Part shown: positions 18,729 to 64,000 of the stretch, piece by piece
Numbering within the stretch: position 1 is the first letter of the stretch
Layout of the letters: the number at the start of each line of letters is the position of its first letter
Origin: Parcubacteria group bacterium CG08_land_8_20_14_0_20_48_21
GTDB taxonomy: Bacteria > Patescibacteriota > Patescibacteriia > UBA1544
Direction of reading: 5' to 3'
Length of the DNA: 64,000 nucleotides
NCBI GenBank assembly: GCA_002774425.1
Contig: PEYJ01000009.1
Coordinates: 3,134 to 67,133, forward strand
Translations under genes and position numbers: made by a program
Notes under the pieces: model-generated
The model's input: only the letters and a program-made list of their open reading frames with translations
What the model was told of the DNA's origin: nothing
Database searches by the model: none

Positions 18729-19862
18729 CTAGCGACGTATCGGCATGACCAGATAGAGATAGGGTTGTTTGGGGGTGTCCGCCGGCTCAAAGATACATGG
18801 TGTCGTGCTGTCGGCGATTTTCAGCATAACTTTTCCGGCGTGCAGCGCATTAAGCCCCTCAATAACATACCGGTGATTAAGCGTCGTGGTAATATCAGGC
18901 CCTTGTATATCTCCCTCAAGCGTAACCGCATTCTCCCCGAATTGTGTTGATGATGCAGATAGCGTAAGTTGCTGTTGAGCAGTGTTGCTAGTAAAGACAA
19001 CATCGCATACGCCTGCTTTTGAGAAGAGGCTTGCACTTTTCACGAGGCGCGATAGCGTTGCGGTTGCCACAATTGCCGTAGTTGTGGTATTTTGCGGAAT
19101 AATCTGCCGGTATTCGGGGTAGACACCATCAATCAAACGAGAAATAATCTCTATGGTATCAAGCGTAAAAAGTATTTGTCCTTCTTGTATGTAGAGTGTG
19201 AGCCGTTCATCTTCATTTTCAAATGTATACAATATGCGCAAGAGCTCCTGCAGGGTGCGTAAGGGAATGATGGTTGAAAAATCGTTTTCTGGACCGCTAT
19301 GTGTTAAAATTTTTCTCTCGCCCAACCGATAACTATCCGTACCAACAAGTGTAAGAATTTTATCTTTCACCTCGTAAGACAAAGACGCGCCACTAATCTC
19401 CTGGCGAGATTCGTGCGGTGATATAGTAAAAAGAACTTGCTCAAGCGCGTCACGGAACTGAATCGCGCCGCATGTAAGTGGATTTATTTTATCTGTGTTG
19501 GGAAGTGGGGGAAATTCGGCTGCGGGAACGCCGCGTATTTTTGTGTAGTAGTTCGCACAACGCACCTCAAGTACATCTTCTTTTAGTTCAAGGTCAACCT
19601 TTTCGTTCGGGAGTAGGTTAACATATTCAGTTAAGAGTCGCGCATCAAACGTATACGCCCCTTCCTTTTCCACTTTACCTCGAATAGTTGATCGCACGCC
19701 CATTTCAAGATTATTACTAATGCACTCTATCACACCTTTATCGGTCGCGCGTAAGAGAATGTTTTGTAGGATGGGAAGGTTTGTGGACTTGTGCGGTATT
19801 CTCCCCGCAACATGTAATCCTTTTTTAAGGTTGTCCTGAAGGCATTGAAATCTCATACACAC
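18729..19862 (-). CDS. dnaN: DNA polymerase III beta sliding clamp
   Basis: 377 aa three-domain clamp; position immediately downstream of dnaA. Confidence 0.85.
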   Translation of the reverse strand: MCMRFQCLQDNLKKGLHVAGRIPHKSTNLPILQNILLRATDKGVIECISNNLEMGVRSTIRGKVEKEGAYTFDARLLTEYVNLLPNEKVDLELKEDVLEVRCANYYTKIRGVPAAEFPPLPNTDKINPLTCGAIQFRDALEQVLFTISPHESRQEISGASLSYEVKDKILTLVGTDSYRLGERKILTHSGPENDFSTIIPLRTLQELLRILYTFENEDERLTLYIQEGQILFTLDTIEIISRLIDGVYPEYRQIIPQNTTTTAIVATATLSRLVKSASLFSKAGVCDVVFTSNTAQQQLTLSASSTQFGENAVTLEGDIQGPDITTTLNHRYVIEGLNALHAGKVMLKIADSTTPCIFEPADTPKQPYLYLVMPIRR

Positions 19863-20138
19863 GCGGAGGTAGTATTAAAGAGTATAAAATACTATATTAA
19901 ATCAATAATAGTAATAAGGGCTGTGTAAACTGTGGGAAAGGAGAAATACAGCAGTTGCAATAGGCGCTCAAACTATAAGAAAGTGTGGATGAGTATCAAC
20001 AAGTGTTCAACAATGTAAAGTGTGTAGATACAGTAGAGTGTATAACTCACGAATTGTACACCTATAAGCAGCACGTCTATCCACAGTAAAATGCCGTATA
20101 AGTACCACCTTCCACACAATACATACACCGTACATTTC
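19863..20138. other. candidate oriC: DnaA boxes plus AT-rich unwinding element between dnaA and dnaN
   Basis: AT-rich tract 19871-19920; near-consensus DnaA boxes TGTGGATGA (19984-19992) and CTATCCACA (20077-20085), weaker TGTGGGAAA (19931-19939). Confidence 0.55.
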
Positions 20139-21548
20139 TCATACCTCGCTATACAGCCGTTGCCGTATGAGGTCCACGTTCTGCCGTAATCCGGAATCGG
20201 ACTCAATCGCCGTATGAATCTTTGTATATGCGTGCATGGCAGTGGTGTGGTCACGATTACCTAACTCCTGTCCTATATTCGGATAGGATGAAGAAAGCTC
20301 TTCTCTCATGAGGTACATAGCGATTTGTCGGGGAAGCACCAATTCCTTTTTTCTACTTTTCCCAACCAGATCGTCAACCGTAATATGGAAAAAATCTGCA
20401 ATATGGTCCACAAGCTCCTGTGAAGAGAGCGAAGCGCGTCGTCGCGCGTACGTTGAAGAGTTAAGAACCTCTTTAATTGTTTGTGAGGTTGGCGGAATTT
20501 GATGAAATTGATGGTGCGCAACAATACGATTAAGCGCACCTTCCAATTCTCGGACATTGTTGTGCACATTTTCTGCAATCAACGCAAGCATCTCAGGCGC
20601 GAGATCGTAGAGCCGTTCTTTGCACTTGGCTTCCAAAATAGCAACGCGCGTTTCAAAGTCGGGTTGGGATATGTCAGCAATCATTCCCCATTCAAAACGT
20701 GACTGCAGACGCTTTTCGAGCGATGGTATGGCATTTGGCGGTCGATCAGAGCTTAATACTACTTGACAGTTGTTTTGATGAAGTGTATTAAAGGTATGAA
20801 AAAGTGCTTCTTGAGTTCCTTCTTTTCCCGCAATAAACTGGATGTCATCTATAAGGAGCAGATCAACCATACGATACGTATCGTTGAATTGTTTTGCCTG
20901 CCCGTTTTTTACTGCTTGAATATAATCGTTGGTGAATTTTTCCGCACTCGCGTAGAGAATTTTGATGGATGGTTTTTGCGCGAGGATGTGATGACCGACC
21001 GCCTGTAACAAATGCGTTTTTCCAAGGCCGACACCGCCATAAATAAAAAGTGGATTGTAGACTGTACCCGGTCGCTCAGCAACCGCTTTTGCCGCCGCGT
21101 GCGCGAGTTCATTACCCTTTCCAACGATAAAACTTTCAAATTGATAACGGTCGTTCAAACCATACTTATTGACCGAACGGGGAAGTGGATTGTTCGTCAA
21201 AAAATTGTGTGCAGCCGGTTCTTTTACTGACACCCCGCCCCCCGGAACCGTTTCCAACAACGCGCTGTTTGTTTTCGCCGCACGCGCCTCCGGCTGTTGT
21301 CCGGTATTTACTTTATACTCCACGCCAATGACGGCGTTATCCGTGCTGTTCTTCAGCGCATGCAGTATGGCTGTGTGGTATTTTTTCTCCAGCCACACCT
21401 TGGTAAAGGTATTGGGAACGCATATCACCACCATCCCCTCCGCAAGCGCGCTAATGAAGGTGTTTTTAAACCAGGTAGTAAAATTTGCTTTACTGATGAG
21501 GAGTTCAAGCTCTCCTAAAGCGGACTGCCAAAGTTCTTCGTTGGTCAT
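20139..21548 (-). CDS. dnaA: chromosomal replication initiator DnaA
   Basis: AAA+ Walker A GGVGLGKTHL, Walker B LLIDDIQF, C-terminal DnaA-box binding HTH. Confidence 0.95.
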   Translation of the reverse strand: MTNEELWQSALGELELLISKANFTTWFKNTFISALAEGMVVICVPNTFTKVWLEKKYHTAILHALKNSTDNAVIGVEYKVNTGQQPEARAAKTNSALLETVPGGGVSVKEPAAHNFLTNNPLPRSVNKYGLNDRYQFESFIVGKGNELAHAAAKAVAERPGTVYNPLFIYGGVGLGKTHLLQAVGHHILAQKPSIKILYASAEKFTNDYIQAVKNGQAKQFNDTYRMVDLLLIDDIQFIAGKEGTQEALFHTFNTLHQNNCQVVLSSDRPPNAIPSLEKRLQSRFEWGMIADISQPDFETRVAILEAKCKERLYDLAPEMLALIAENVHNNVRELEGALNRIVAHHQFHQIPPTSQTIKEVLNSSTYARRRASLSSQELVDHIADFFHITVDDLVGKSRKKELVLPRQIAMYLMREELSSSYPNIGQELGNRDHTTAMHAYTKIHTAIESDSGLRQNVDLIRQRLYSEV

Positions 21549-21819
21549 AGGGATTGATGCGAGTAAAAAGTTACTAAAAAAAGATCAGGTGGCAGAAATG
21601 CATCAATATTTACAGGAAAAGTGCTGGGAGTATAGCACACTTTTGCACAAGCGCAAATGAGTGGCACGGTAAAAAGTTTATAAGGTGTGCATAAGGTGTG
21701 GAAAAAACTTGATGCGTACAACTAATACAACCAAGTGGAAAAATAATGACCTGACCTCATTGTTGACATAAAAGGTTTTTTTCTGTACGCTACATCTTGT
21801 ATATTAGCTCACTCAATTT
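21549..21819. promoter_or_regulatory. dnaA/rpmH divergent promoter region with DnaA boxes
   Basis: TGTGGAAAA at 21697-21705 (8/9 of TGTGGATAA) and AGTGGAAAA near 21733. Candidate rpmH promoter TTGACA (21763-21768)-17-TACGCT. Confidence 0.45.
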
Positions 21820-21960
21820 ATGCCAAAAAGAACACTCCAATCAAAAAGCGTTAAGAGAAACAAACGCAAGCATGGTTTTAGAAAGCGCATGTCCACTACC
21901 AGCGGTAGAAATACCATCAAGCGACGCAAGGCAAAGGGAAGAAAAAAGATCTCCTTATAA
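21820..21960 (+). CDS. rpmH: 50S ribosomal protein L34
   Basis: [46 protein letters not shown]; 46 aa, below the ORF-track size cutoff; classic rpmH-rnpA arrangement divergent from dnaA. Confidence 0.92.
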
Positions 21961-21972
21961 CGAGTTCTACGT

Positions 21973-24732: not shown

Positions 24733-25149
24733 TTAGTTGTCCTCTGTCGCTTCTTCTTTTTTGGCGTTCTTGTAAGAACTTGTCTGTACAGGCTGTTTTG
24801 ATGACCCTCCCATAGCGCATTTTCCGTTGAATACTGCTCCAGGGGTCATGGAAACGCTTTTTGCCGTTATATCACCATCAATCAGTGCGGTTTCCGTGAG
24901 ATCAAGGCGTTCAGAAACAGAGATGTTTCCATGTACCGTTCCGGCAATCATGGCACTTGCTGCGCTAATATTAGCATTAATTGTAGCCCTCGTACCAATT
25001 CGAACTTCCCCGTCGGTTTTCAGCGATCCTGAAACCTCTCCTTCAACCACAATATTTCCCTTACCCACAAAATCACCCTCAACTTTAACCGTAGAGCCGA
25101 TGATCGTTTCGGTGTCTGCTGAAGGTGGAATGTCTGAGTTTTTAAACAT
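24733..25149 (-). CDS. bactofilin (polymer-forming cytoskeletal protein)
   Basis: Repetitive beta-helix pattern (VKVEGDFVGKGNIVVEGEVSGSLKTDGEVRIG...) typical of bactofilin DUF583. Confidence 0.75.
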   Translation of the reverse strand: MFKNSDIPPSADTETIIGSTVKVEGDFVGKGNIVVEGEVSGSLKTDGEVRIGTRATINANISAASAMIAGTVHGNISVSERLDLTETALIDGDITAKSVSMTPGAVFNGKCAMGGSSKQPVQTSSYKNAKKEEATEDN

Positions 25150-25382
25150 AGTTCAAATACTATTAAATAAATGACGTTCAGGAGTGGACGTGTGAGTAAT
25201 TTTAGATCATTGAGAGCTTATTGTCAAAGTGGATTTTATCTTTTATACTACCAGAGCCATGTAGATATATATGCATTCTAAATAAGCCGCAAAGTTACTT
25301 AGAATACAATGACCTCATGTGGTAGTACCGGAAAGTTTGTAAGATAAAGATTGTACATTTTACGACACATAAATAATTAAAT

Positions 25383-25398
25383 TGTTCCACGTGGAACA
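25383..25398. promoter_or_regulatory. parS site 1 (ParB-binding), perfect palindrome TGTTCCACGTGGAACA embedded in 32-bp perfect palindrome 25375-25406
   Basis: Matches the parS consensus TGTTNCACGTGAAACA (15/16; fully symmetric variant). Confidence 0.75.
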
Positions 25399-25453
25399 AT
25401 TTAATTATTTTCTCCGTGATACTATCTTCGCCTATCTTCTCGCCGGAACCCTT

Positions 25454-25525
25454 GCCCCTGTAGTTCAACGGATAGAACGAGGGACTCCTAAGCCCTAAAT
25501 AGAGGTTCAATTCCTCTCGGGGGCA
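25454..25525 (+). tRNA. tRNA-Arg(CCT), no encoded CCA
   Basis: GCCCCTGTAGTTCAACGGATAGAACGAGGGACTCCTAAGCCCTAAATAGAGGTTCAATTCCTCTCGGGGGCA; anticodon CCT at 25487-25489; A31-G39 mismatch in the anticodon stem. Confidence 0.7.
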
Positions 25526-25579
25526 CGGGTATCGGCAAGGTGTCGTACGTTACTTGTAAAATATAATATAGTACAACAT

Positions 25580-25656
25580 GGGCCTGTAGCTCAGCTGGCT
25601 AGAGCGCTGCATTCGCATTGCAGAGGTCAGGAGTTCGAATCTCCTCAGGTCCACCA
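25580..25656 (+). tRNA. tRNA-Ala(CGC), CCA encoded, G3-U70
   Basis: GGGCCTGTAGCTCAGCTGGCTAGAGCGCTGCATTCGCATTGCAGAGGTCAGGAGTTCGAATCTCCTCAGGTCCACCA. Confidence 0.9.
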
Positions 25657-25702
25657 ACTTCAATAGATTCAGTATAATTACTGTATAATCATGAATATAT
25701 CT

Positions 25703-25778
25703 GGGCCGTTGGCGCAGCTGGTAGCGCGCTTCCATGGCATGGAAGAGGTCACCGGTTCGATCCCGGTACGGTCCACCA
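25703..25778 (+). tRNA. tRNA-Ala(GGC), CCA encoded, G3-U70
   Basis: GGGCCGTTGGCGCAGCTGGTAGCGCGCTTCCATGGCATGGAAGAGGTCACCGGTTCGATCCCGGTACGGTCCACCA. Confidence 0.9.
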
Positions 25779-26327
25779 AAATACCATAAAATAATATTTA
25801 TATGCATTTCGAGGATAAATTCAAAATTAAGCTAAATCAGAACCTATGGGTTTTAGTGGCTGGTTTCTTGAGTTTAGGATTTTCGGAATATTATGACTTG
25901 GAGAAATTAAGATTCTTATCTTTGGTGTTCAGCATATTTGCTCTGATTTCTGTCGTCGTAACTCTACTCTTTTATACAATTTGATATTGCAAGAATAAGC
26001 TTGAAAAATAGTGGCTTGGTGCATCAGAAGTTCCGTTCAAAAAAGGTTCGCGCAAATGCTAAAATAATACCACCAAATCATATGGTTAACGGACAAAAAA
26101 AGCTATTATTGCTCTCATTATACTTTTTGTGATATATTTTTTGTACGTTTTTGTTACTAAAATGTACTACTGCGGAAACGCGCCTTTCTATATCCCTAAC
26201 ACATATGATTGTGTATAAACTTGTCTATTCCGCCCAGGTTACTGGGCGGAGATTCATCTTTATTTTGTTTCAACTAACACGAATGTGATCAACTAAATTA
26301 GTGTTGGTAAATCATACACATAAAAAA

Positions 26328-26343
26328 TGTTCCATGTGGAACA
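26328..26343. promoter_or_regulatory. parS site 2, TGTTCCATGTGGAACA (one central mismatch) within AT-rich palindromic arms
   Basis: 15/16 identity to site 1; A-tract/T-tract flanks AAAAAA...TTTTTTT. Confidence 0.6.
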
Positions 26344-26504
26344 TTTTTTTATCAATGTGAATCATAAATGTGTAAAACATGTGTACAACTTATTTTAAAA
26401 ATTAATTATTAACTAATATTAGCCAGTATTATTTTATCTAGCTATAGGGATTTGTGGATAGGTATAATAGTGTACTTTATATTCTTGAATTGACTATATG
26501 CAAT

Positions 26505-26520
26505 TGTTCCACGTGGAACA
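26505..26520. promoter_or_regulatory. parS site 3, perfect TGTTCCACGTGGAACA within 24-bp perfect palindrome 26501-26524
   Basis: CAATTGTTCCACGTGGAACAATTG. Confidence 0.75.
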
Positions 26521-26636
26521 ATTGAGATAGAGCAATAGTTCTTTTTGCGCATAGCGATAAAAATAAAATTAAAGTGTAAGGAAGATGAAATAAATTTAGA
26601 TTTTGTCACATATTATAATATATGCCATTTTCAAAT

Positions 26637-26652
26637 TTTTCCACGTGGAAAA
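26637..26652. promoter_or_regulatory. parS-like site 4, TTTTCCACGTGGAAAA within 24-bp perfect palindrome 26633-26656
   Basis: Symmetric two-position variant of parS (G2T/C15A); core TTCCACGTGGAA conserved. Confidence 0.5.
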
Positions 26653-26707
26653 ATTTTAGTTCTAGTGTGTCGTAAAATTAACTATAGCGGTGTATAACTC
26701 TTGTACA

Positions 26708-26736
26708 TTGACGTAACTTATGAGGTTGTTTATACT
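26708..26736 (+). promoter_or_regulatory. sigma70-type promoter for trxA: TTGACG-17-TATACT
   Basis: -35 at 26708-26713, 17-nt spacer, -10 at 26731-26736, 45 nt upstream of trxA ATG. Confidence 0.6.
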
Positions 26737-30777: not shown

Positions 30778-31465
30778 GCACAAATCCACTTGCATTGGAG
30801 GGCGTATATTATAGATTCACCAGAACGACTCTCTTTTGATGTAGTTCTTTTACCGGATCAGTAGATGACTTTGAAGGTCGTTATGGCAAATACGGCGCTA
30901 TATTCCCGCTATCCAAAAGGAAGGATACGCTTGAGCTCCGTGATTGAAGGTATGGGCATACCGCACCTTACCATTTTTATGGGCTGCATCTCTGCAAAGG
31001 ACTTACCACTCCTTGAAAAGGAGCTGCTTACCATAAGCAGGCGGCATATTGCGCTACCCTCTGCGCAAATGCGACGTATGCGGACACACTATCAAACGGA
31101 GAAAAAGTTTCCGGTGTACGGGTAAAAATAACATCCGAGTTGCAACGAGTGCATGAAGACGTGGTGAATCGCTTTGCACCAATGTGTTACGACGAACACG
31201 CAACACTGGATACGCCCTACCCCCTCACCTGATCTGGAAGATATGACACTCCACTGGATCAACCGTTACGACCCATCTGCTACTCGCAAATTTTTTCCCG
31301 CGCATCACCACAGGGTTTGGCGAACACGAAGCAGGAGATATTTCTCTGCACACATGGTTTTTTGCACGGCACATCGCCGTGTGCCACTTGGAAAATTTCT
31401 GCACCTACAGAAAAAAACTACTTGAGGTACGCGTGAAGTCCTAAACAGTGTCACGCCCTTTCTGC

Positions 31466-62730: not shown

Positions 62731-62954
62731 GACGCTCGTTTTCATGGATTTCAGCATGTAGCTCACAAGCAATGCTTGTTGGCTGCTCCACTGAAAATTC
62801 AGAAACCGGAAATACTGATTGTACGTTGACAACTACATACAACAAGAATCAACACATTGAAAACTATCTAAATAAGAGTTTTCAAATCTAGTCAGAGAGA
62901 TGCAAATCTCTCAGTCGAGCAAGTACGACATACAATTGCAATACGTATGTCAGG

Positions 62955-64000
<1,046 letters not shown>

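Follow-up and report, generated by a model that had tools for sequence, protein, structure and literature searches.

A putative origin-proximal centromere of Pseudomonas-type parS sites in a Patescibacteria bacterium

A 64,000-nucleotide stretch of contig PEYJ01000009.1 (assembly GCA_002774425.1, Parcubacteria group bacterium CG08_land_8_20_14_0_20_48_21), hereafter the window, carries a cluster of four 16-bp palindromes of the parS type a few kilobases from dnaA, each continuing outwards into complementary arms. This raises the questions of whether the cluster is a chromosomal centromere and what the arms represent. The explanation that we favour, and hold to be probable, is an origin-proximal chromosomal centromere of a Patescibacteria bacterium, composed of three or four symmetric Pseudomonas-type parS sites with two-layered arms. 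By analogy with the ParABS paradigm, a ParB dimer encoded elsewhere would nucleate at these sites, close as a clamp dependent on cytidine triphosphate (CTP) and spread, and the resulting partition complex would segregate the origin region and usually also load SMC. The inner A/T flank (AAW-parS-WTT, a unit of ~22–24 bp) would belong to the functional site, acting either by weak contacts with ParB or by DNA shape. The outer arms would derive from hairpin-templated (quasipalindrome or template-switch) correction starting from the perfect 16-bp core, long perfect palindromes being common anyway in this type of genome; some of the arms may double as stem-loops.

Four clustered parS sites

A preliminary description of this DNA placed parS copies at 25383, 26328, 26505 and 26637, and all four coordinates were confirmed. 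Matches to the parS motif with up to three mismatches numbered five in the window against 0.20 expected, a count reached by none of 100 shuffles; the fifth match, at 31380 with three mismatches, looks like chance. The four true sites (consensus T[G/T]TTCCA[C/T]GTGGAA[A/C]A) span 1.27 kb out of 64 kb, which under uniform scatter has a probability of roughly 3e-5. Measured against the 16-bp palindrome TGTTNCACGTGNAACA, sites 1 and 3 are exact, site 2 has one mismatch and site 4 has two mirrored mismatches:

25371..25410, no strand: parS site 1, exact core TGTTCCACGTGGAACA at 25383-25398, in a perfect 40-bp palindrome (AAATAATTAAAT, core, ATTTAATTATTT)
26322..26349, no strand: parS site 2, core TGTTCCATGTGGAACA at 26328-26343, with A6/T6 arms, in a 28-bp palindrome with one central mismatch
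26501..26524, no strand: parS site 3, exact core at 26505-26520, in a 24-bp palindrome (CAAT, core, ATTG)
26633..26656, no strand: parS-like site 4, core TTTTCCACGTGGAAAA at 26637-26652, in a 24-bp palindrome (AAAT, core, ATTT)

The palindrome lengths first described hold for sites 3 and 4 (24 bp each), while site 1 measures 40 bp (25371-25410), not 32. Beyond the core, the arms of sites 1–4 thus comprise 12, 6, 4 and 4 extra pairs. Complementarity expected by chance is 0.27 locally, and an extension of at least four pairs around a 16-bp gap occurs at only 8 of 1600 positions of the region; the palindromic arms of the four sites are not due to chance. The deviation in site 2 is a single central C-to-T change, located inside the four bases of the would-be hairpin loop, and that in site 4 is a mirrored pair (G2-to-T and C15-to-A). 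Site 4 is probably the weakest predicted ParB site of the four, because position 2 is invariant across all half-sites of Pseudomonas aeruginosa (PMC4368675).

The same four sites are present in the strain contigs examined, which measure ~60–79 kb (metagenome JGI 3300007986 and related samples; ENA ERZ272933xx). The stretches of these contigs that extend beyond both window ends contain no further site with up to three mismatches, and in ~76 kb of the organism there is no copy of the motif outside the 1.27-kb cluster.

The cluster is also bracketed by a mirrored repeat, which includes the following 13-mers:

25357..25369, plus strand: 13-mer ATTTTACGACACA, just outside site 1
26666..26678, minus strand: mirror copy of ATTTTACGACACA, just outside site 4

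These are the only two occurrences of ATTTTACGACACA in the window, and they belong to a 53-nt imperfect inverted repeat with 79% complementarity. The mirrored 13-mers suggest an inverted duplication as the origin of sites 1 and 4, or else the presence of a second binding site. The sequence TTATGTGTCGTAAAA is kept beside site 1 in a relative with a 74% identical bactofilin (L215, about 430–445).

A known parS variant in a new host group

The core TGTTCCACGTGGAACA is identical to parS2 and parS3 of P. aeruginosa, perfect palindromes that show the tightest ParB binding in a genome with four oriC-proximal sites (PMC4368675), and to parS of P. putida (PMC7022226). It is the Pseudomonas variant of the canonical TGTTTCACGTGAAACA, from which it differs by a symmetric change at positions 5 and 12 (PMC5450999). 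The resemblance to Pseudomonas extends from the 16-mer itself to the arrangement, a four-site cluster near oriC made up of perfect and near-perfect palindromes (PMC4368675, PMC5450999, PMC7022226). The host in the present case, however, belongs to the candidate phyla radiation (CPR), all four sites fall within 1.3 kb, and no parAB lies within ~30–45 kb, whereas in strain PAO1 parAB is ~7 kb from oriC. Site 4 is moreover symmetrically changed at the position that is invariant in Pseudomonas half-sites, and the perfect palindromes of 24–40 bp are described for the window sites, Pseudomonas having been compared by its 16-bp core alone.

The parS sites of Bacillus subtilis, recognised by Spo0J (consensus TGTTNCACGTGAAACA), belong to the same family of 16-bp palindromic, origin-proximal centromeres, while the window variant has C5/G12 in both halves. 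In B. subtilis the sites are distributed across the ~20% of the chromosome nearest the origin, for the most part within genes, in contrast to the tightly clustered, intergenic sites found here.

A scan of metagenome contigs with the 20-mer AWTKTTCCAYGTGGAAMAWT, which covers all four window sites, returned at least 119 loci from many lineages; none of the 80 matches listed came from the source samples. A Soj/ParA homologue adjoins the motif at 25 of the 119 loci and a Spo0J/ParB homologue at 21, many of the loci being only 1–5 kb long. One motif-adjacent ParB (L173, Omnitrophota) was confirmed as a member of the ParB/Spo0J family; another (L144) is Clostridia-like in our own judgement of its sequence motifs. 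Because the motif adjoins parA or parB in unrelated metagenome loci, the exact 16-mer is, as judged from this gene linkage, a working parS in several phyla.

Position relative to the replication origin

The genes around the cluster follow the order Lon, dnaN (18729-19862, minus), dnaA (20139-21548, minus), rnpA, yidC, a diacylglycerol-kinase-like gene (DAGK), bactofilin (24733-25149, minus), site 1, three tRNA genes, ~1 kb of AT-rich DNA with sites 2–4, trxA and rnhB. Two features give the context of the cluster:

19863..21970, minus strand: probable bipartite oriC, made up of dnaA, the region upstream of it and the dnaA-dnaN spacer, with DnaA-box-like 9-mers at 19984, 20077, 21686 and 21697
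25454..25778, plus strand: tRNA-Arg(CCT), tRNA-Ala(CGC) and tRNA-Ala(GGC), between sites 1 and 2 and thus inside the cluster

A distance of 3.8–5.1 kb separates the four sites from the start of dnaA. Across 80 dnaA-centred loci of relatives (L007–L086), DnaA-box-like 9-mers with no more than one mismatch have a density of 1.38 per 500-bp bin at -500..0 of dnaA and 0.7–1.0 in the bins spanning the dnaA-dnaN spacer, against ~0.15 elsewhere, including 4–5 kb upstream. The cumulative GC-skew minimum lies near the parS cluster and dnaA region. Since DnaA-box density peaks at the flanks of dnaA, and in view of the GC skew, oriC is placed at dnaA, with a bipartite layout, and the AT-rich kilobase is not the origin. 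The bipartite layout (DnaA boxes at 19863-20138 and 21549-21970 in the window) is consistent across the 80 Patescibacteria loci and is Bacillus-like; the Bacillus oriC has a similar architecture, with boxes both ahead of dnaA and in its spacer to dnaN.

With its core shared with P. aeruginosa parS2/parS3, adjacency to parAB in other genomes, synteny among relatives (see below) and distance from dnaA, the cluster is supported as the origin-proximal parS-type centromere first proposed. Its position between the tRNA genes and trxA applies to sites 2–4; site 1 lies between the bactofilin gene, which starts 220 bp away, and tRNA-Arg, ~45 bp downstream, so that the tRNA genes are inside the cluster. 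Only sites 2–4 fall within the 32%-GC stretch preceding trxA, and this AT-rich DNA, first described as essentially non-coding, is not wholly empty, containing a 60-aa open reading frame and a terminator-like hairpin. The reading frame (25802-25984, plus strand) has weak transporter-like Pfam matches and probably encodes a membrane protein; ~240 bp downstream of it, the strong hairpin TTCCGCCCAGGTTACTGGGCGGAG (26228-26251, plus strand) is followed by a T-rich tail. Something is probably transcribed in the AT-rich kilobase. The only known RNA families detected in the region are the tRNAs, and a promoter-like element of trxA lies at 26708-26736, downstream of sites 3 and 4.

Conservation among relatives

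The closest DnaA proteins in species-representative genomes share 55–60% identity with that of the window and come from Kerfeld-, Falkow-, Magasanik-, Uhr-, Komeili- and Buchananbacteria (Patescibacteria). The exact 16-mer occurs in 7 of the 80 dnaA-centred loci (L015, L018, L022, L028, L045, L062 and L073), usually in two copies. In five of them the sites are syntenic with those of the window, between trxA/rnhB and the bactofilin–DAGK–yidC–dnaA block; in L028 and L045, where yidC-dnaA-dnaN alone was identified, the sites are upstream of yidC. Across the 80 loci, TCCACGTGGA is the most recurrent palindrome centre that is not purely AT.

At shorter evolutionary distance, L215 retains site 1 between tRNA-Arg and the bactofilin gene. 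The 16-mer is conserved, but the intergenic DNA around it cannot be aligned. The site-1 position is without a parS in a 67% relative (L216), as is a stretch of 16.6 kb in a 61% relative (L217); the contigs of relatives that are intermediate by DnaA (83% and 77% identity) stop before the site region. The comparison indicates that the site is strongly constrained where present, yet near dnaA in only a minority of relatives.

The bactofilin gene beside site 1 is syntenic in many relatives. Bactofilins are coupled to ParABS in Myxococcus xanthus (BacNOP/PadC), and the 220-bp distance here, together with the order bactofilin-parB-parA-parS in three high-GC metagenome loci (L127, L188 and L190), recalls that system. 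Unlike in Myxococcus, however, the window has no PadC-like or ParB-like gene, and an association of bactofilin with parS is absent across the relatives: parS was found in 3 of 24 loci with bactofilin and 3 of 35 without, and the proposal that the adjacent bactofilin is linked to parS was rejected. A bactofilin–ParABS connection is here a lead, not a link.

In four relatives lacking the canonical parS, the same synteny block contains, immediately downstream of trxA, one or two perfect palindromes of 24–38 bp that share the core AAGTCCACAAATTTGTGGACTT (L035:358-385, L048:5690-5767, L051:5665-5742 and L053:5742-5777). This core is absent from the window; its half-site GTCCAC resembles the parS half-site GTTCCAC, but the spacer is AAATTT. 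Between L048 and L051 a mirrored, compensatory A/T change affects both arms. These palindromes could be terminators or an alternative protein site.

Search for ParA and ParB

Annotation, domain scans and tblastn with Spo0J and Soj revealed no ParA or ParB in the window, as the preliminary description had also reported. The other genes of the window are housekeeping genes, with no ParB, ParA or evident DNA-binding domain even at relaxed thresholds, and a relaxed Pfam scan of unannotated open reading frames in the window found no DNA-binding domain. Strain contigs covering ~5 kb to the left and ~6.6 kb to the right of the window contain no ParA or ParB, nor did tblastn with Spo0J and Soj detect either in any of the 80 related dnaA loci. 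A protein search with the L173 ParB returned only Omnitrophota and other non-CPR proteins among the 120 best matches, and a literature search on ParABS or chromosome segregation in Patescibacteria found nothing. A ParB is presumed for this organism because a known ParB site is exactly conserved and clustered close to the origin.

Two layers in the palindromic arms

Canonical parS sites had been said to lack arms of this kind, a claim that this variant does not support. After clustering of similar sites, 165 sites from many lineages had a mean extension of 2.94 pairs per arm, compared with 1.08 under a permutation null that preserves position-specific composition, and arms of at least six pairs made up 13% against 0.4%. 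The effect is larger in Patescibacteria, with a mean of 4.43 versus 1.29 and none of 5000 permutations reaching the observed value.

The first layer comprises the innermost positions. In 13 exact Patescibacteria sites, collected regardless of their flanks, A occupies position -2 in every one and position -3 in 85%, and position -1 is always A or T. The metagenome set had been ascertained with A-W...W-T flanks, which was corrected by removing one pattern-matching site per locus; in the remaining 106 half-sites, -2 is A in 77% (85% at GC >= 0.55), -3 is A in 60–65% and -1 is A or T in 84–92%. These alignments thus show the AAW-parS-WTT flank to accompany this parS variant in many lineages whatever their base composition. 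Of the palindrome of site 1, the L215 orthologue keeps only the core and the AAAT/ATTT flank. Only the innermost three or four flank positions appear to behave as part of the recognition site, and either weak contacts with ParB or a preference for a certain DNA shape may underlie this inner flank.

Within a site, the arms covary. Position 1 is A or T about equally often, and its partner is complementary in 92% of the Patescibacteria sites (50% expected); in the wider set the figures are 68% and 45% (p=1e-8). Further out, the probability that the next pair is complementary is 0.59–0.87 (positions 3–10) as long as all inner positions pair, and 0.18–0.39 once the run is broken; outer positions past the first mismatch have a complementarity of 0.26, near background. 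The sequences of the arms vary among sites (AAAT, AAAA, CAAT, GGAA, GAAA and others), diverging beyond about position 3–4. The L215 orthologue of site 1 is a 24-bp palindrome, compared with 40 bp in the window, and the long arms are therefore lineage-specific. Patescibacteria palindromes unrelated to parS with arms of at least eight pairs extend just as readily (mean +3.9 per arm). The change in the loop of site 2 is the sole asymmetry within the four window sites. Predicted DNA folding energies of sites 1–4 are -14.5, -9.5, -8.0 and -6.6 kcal/mol, against -3.6 kcal/mol for the bare 16-mer, with a z of -8.5 for site 1.

Covariation, contiguity, variable arm sequence and the difference between orthologues argue against base-specific protein contacts in the outer arms, and these patterns favour a process or selection acting on the stem as such. 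Most likely the outer arms reflect hairpin-templated quasipalindrome correction, whose expected features fit the observed pattern. Correction of imperfect inverted repeats by template switching is established in Escherichia coli, and it shares with the present sites contiguous perfect arms, arbitrary mirrored sequences, mirrored double changes (L048 versus L051; site 4) and a tolerance of asymmetry that is confined to the loop (site 2). The cases differ in that here the process is read from the pattern alone, and selection for a stem gives a similar pattern.

In five loci from unrelated, mostly high-GC lineages (L092:4902, L160:8036, L162:1388, L169:4068 and L133:11446), the parS core forms the tip of a long perfect palindrome that includes G+C and has 10–19 extra pairs per arm. 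parA/parB genes lie beside the site in four of the five (not L133). Those of L092, L160 and L162 are followed by T-rich tails, giving them the look of intrinsic terminators with parS as the hairpin top.

Alternative explanations

The last observation leads to the best surviving alternative, one we nonetheless regard as unlikely, in which the palindromes are bidirectional intrinsic terminators or insulators acting at the RNA level, the parS core is the hairpin top and ParB is secondary or coincidental. A-rich sequence precedes the sites and T-rich sequence follows them; predicted RNA hairpins form on both strands, with folding energies of -21, -15, -15 and -8 kcal/mol for sites 1–4; T7 follows site 2; and the long examples in L092, L160 and L162 look textbook and lie between genes. 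Double use of a single element would be plausible in compact CPR genomes. A terminator scan, however, called none of the four sites, although stems bordered by A/T runs may escape its rules. Site 1 has the longest palindrome and separates two genes transcribed divergently, an arrangement in which one would not expect a terminator. The mostly or entirely A/T arm pairs contribute little RNA stability each. Selection on RNA would require neither a self-complementary loop nor a 16-mer identical across phyla. A terminator role is possible for some sites, such as site 2 with its T7 tail, and cannot explain site 1.

Somewhat less probable still is that perfect parS cores seed palindromes which grow, or are selected to grow, into hairpin- or cruciform-capable elements of 24–40 bp across phyla and that this extended symmetry is functional. 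A literature search did not find the extended-palindrome property of parS sites described. If it were functional, extended symmetry may favour loading of the ParB clamp on extrudable or deformable AT-flanked DNA, or may insulate the centromere from transcription, and the Patescibacteria centromere would be a compact set of such structures with a distantly encoded ParB or a different partner.

The preliminary description had read the arms as an extended ParB contact or the footprint of a second symmetric partner, a dimeric protein contacting the whole 24–40-bp palindrome base-specifically. We consider this doubtful. The sequence-specific inner flank, which also occurs in high-GC genomes, and the conservation of AAAT/ATTT in L215 speak for it. 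Yet the arms diverge beyond about position 4, both between sites and between orthologues; the halves of a site covary, contrary to what is expected of monomers that make contact independently; complementarity is contiguous and falls to background after the first mismatch; and there is no candidate DNA-binding gene nearby. The outer arms, being site-specific, contiguous-only and unconserved in the orthologue, do not carry the implication drawn from them.

We give slightly less credence to a scenario in which a non-ParB regulator, or a paralogue from the ParB family such as a Noc-like protein, uses the sites as operators to control the bactofilin, tRNA or trxA promoters, ParABS having been lost. 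Such a regulator would accord with the failure to find ParAB in 76 kb or in 80 related loci, the patchy distribution among relatives, and the placement of site 1 just upstream of tRNA-Arg and of sites 3 and 4 upstream of the trxA promoter-like element. Site 4, in addition, deviates at the position that, in work by Jalal et al. from 2020, reportedly separates parS from the Noc-binding site (NBS) in the ParB/Noc family. Against this, the core is identical to a proven parS and adjoins parAB genes in many other phyla, parAB genes are often distant from parS, the sites cluster near the origin as a centromere predicts, and the core differs from the NBS. The NBS consensus is the palindrome ATTTCCCGGGAAAT; an assignment of the four sites as Noc-binding sites was rejected, as they keep the central CACGTG/CATGTG of parS.

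Structural oriC elements, that is, cruciform-forming palindromes or unwinding elements, are very improbable. The region is 32% GC and near dnaA, and a 40-bp AT-rich perfect palindrome could extrude as a cruciform, but the DnaA boxes of the 80 relatives are at dnaA and in the dnaA-dnaN spacer rather than 4–5 kb upstream, only two TTATCCACA-like boxes (at most one mismatch) occur in 25.8–26.8 kb, and the 16-mer core has a well-established function of its own; the AT-rich kilobase was rejected as oriC on the DnaA-box distribution. Least probable of all is a dispersed palindromic repeat, akin to repetitive extragenic palindromes (REP) or miniature inverted-repeat transposable elements (MITE), with an accidental resemblance to parS: the 22 identical bases shared by sites 1 and 3 and the mirrored 13-mer of sites 1 and 4 suggest duplication, but no other copy exists in ~76 kb, the core is conserved at the same locus in distant relatives, and there are neither target-site duplications nor a longer shared unit.

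Other features of the window

A 23S rRNA gene (62951-64000, plus strand) begins ~600 bp downstream of groEL. There is no 16S rRNA gene in the 63 kb upstream of it, and the rRNA genes appear unlinked; the strain contigs end a few kilobases further on. A gene of the phage-integrase family (43918-44724, minus strand) adjoins rpsP, and to the left of the window (L210:762-2360) there are a large serine recombinase and a 1028-aa surface protein with LTD/PKD domains. These genes are possible remnants of mobile elements near the contig end.

Implications

Several points weigh against an origin-proximal centromere with two-layered arms. ParB and ParA were not found in ~76 kb or in the 80 related loci, so that ParB is assumed for the lineage. 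A canonical parS lies within 10 kb of dnaA in no more than 7 of 80 relatives; ParABS is either patchy in the group or has its sites elsewhere in most members. Site 4 may be weak, non-functional or recognised by something else, and possibly does not bind ParB. The metagenome flank set, though corrected for ascertainment, is no random sample of parS sites. Finally, these data do not separate outer arms that arose by mutation from arms favoured by selection for a stem.

The arrangement of parS near the origin is in itself ordinary: a known variant in a new host group. What the window offers is a canonical-looking centromere that would be placed beside the origin in a member of the Patescibacteria/CPR, with exact sites supplied for ParB-binding work in these organisms. 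The AAW/WTT flank and the contiguous palindrome extensions are of interest for ParB loading and for the mutagenesis of palindromes.

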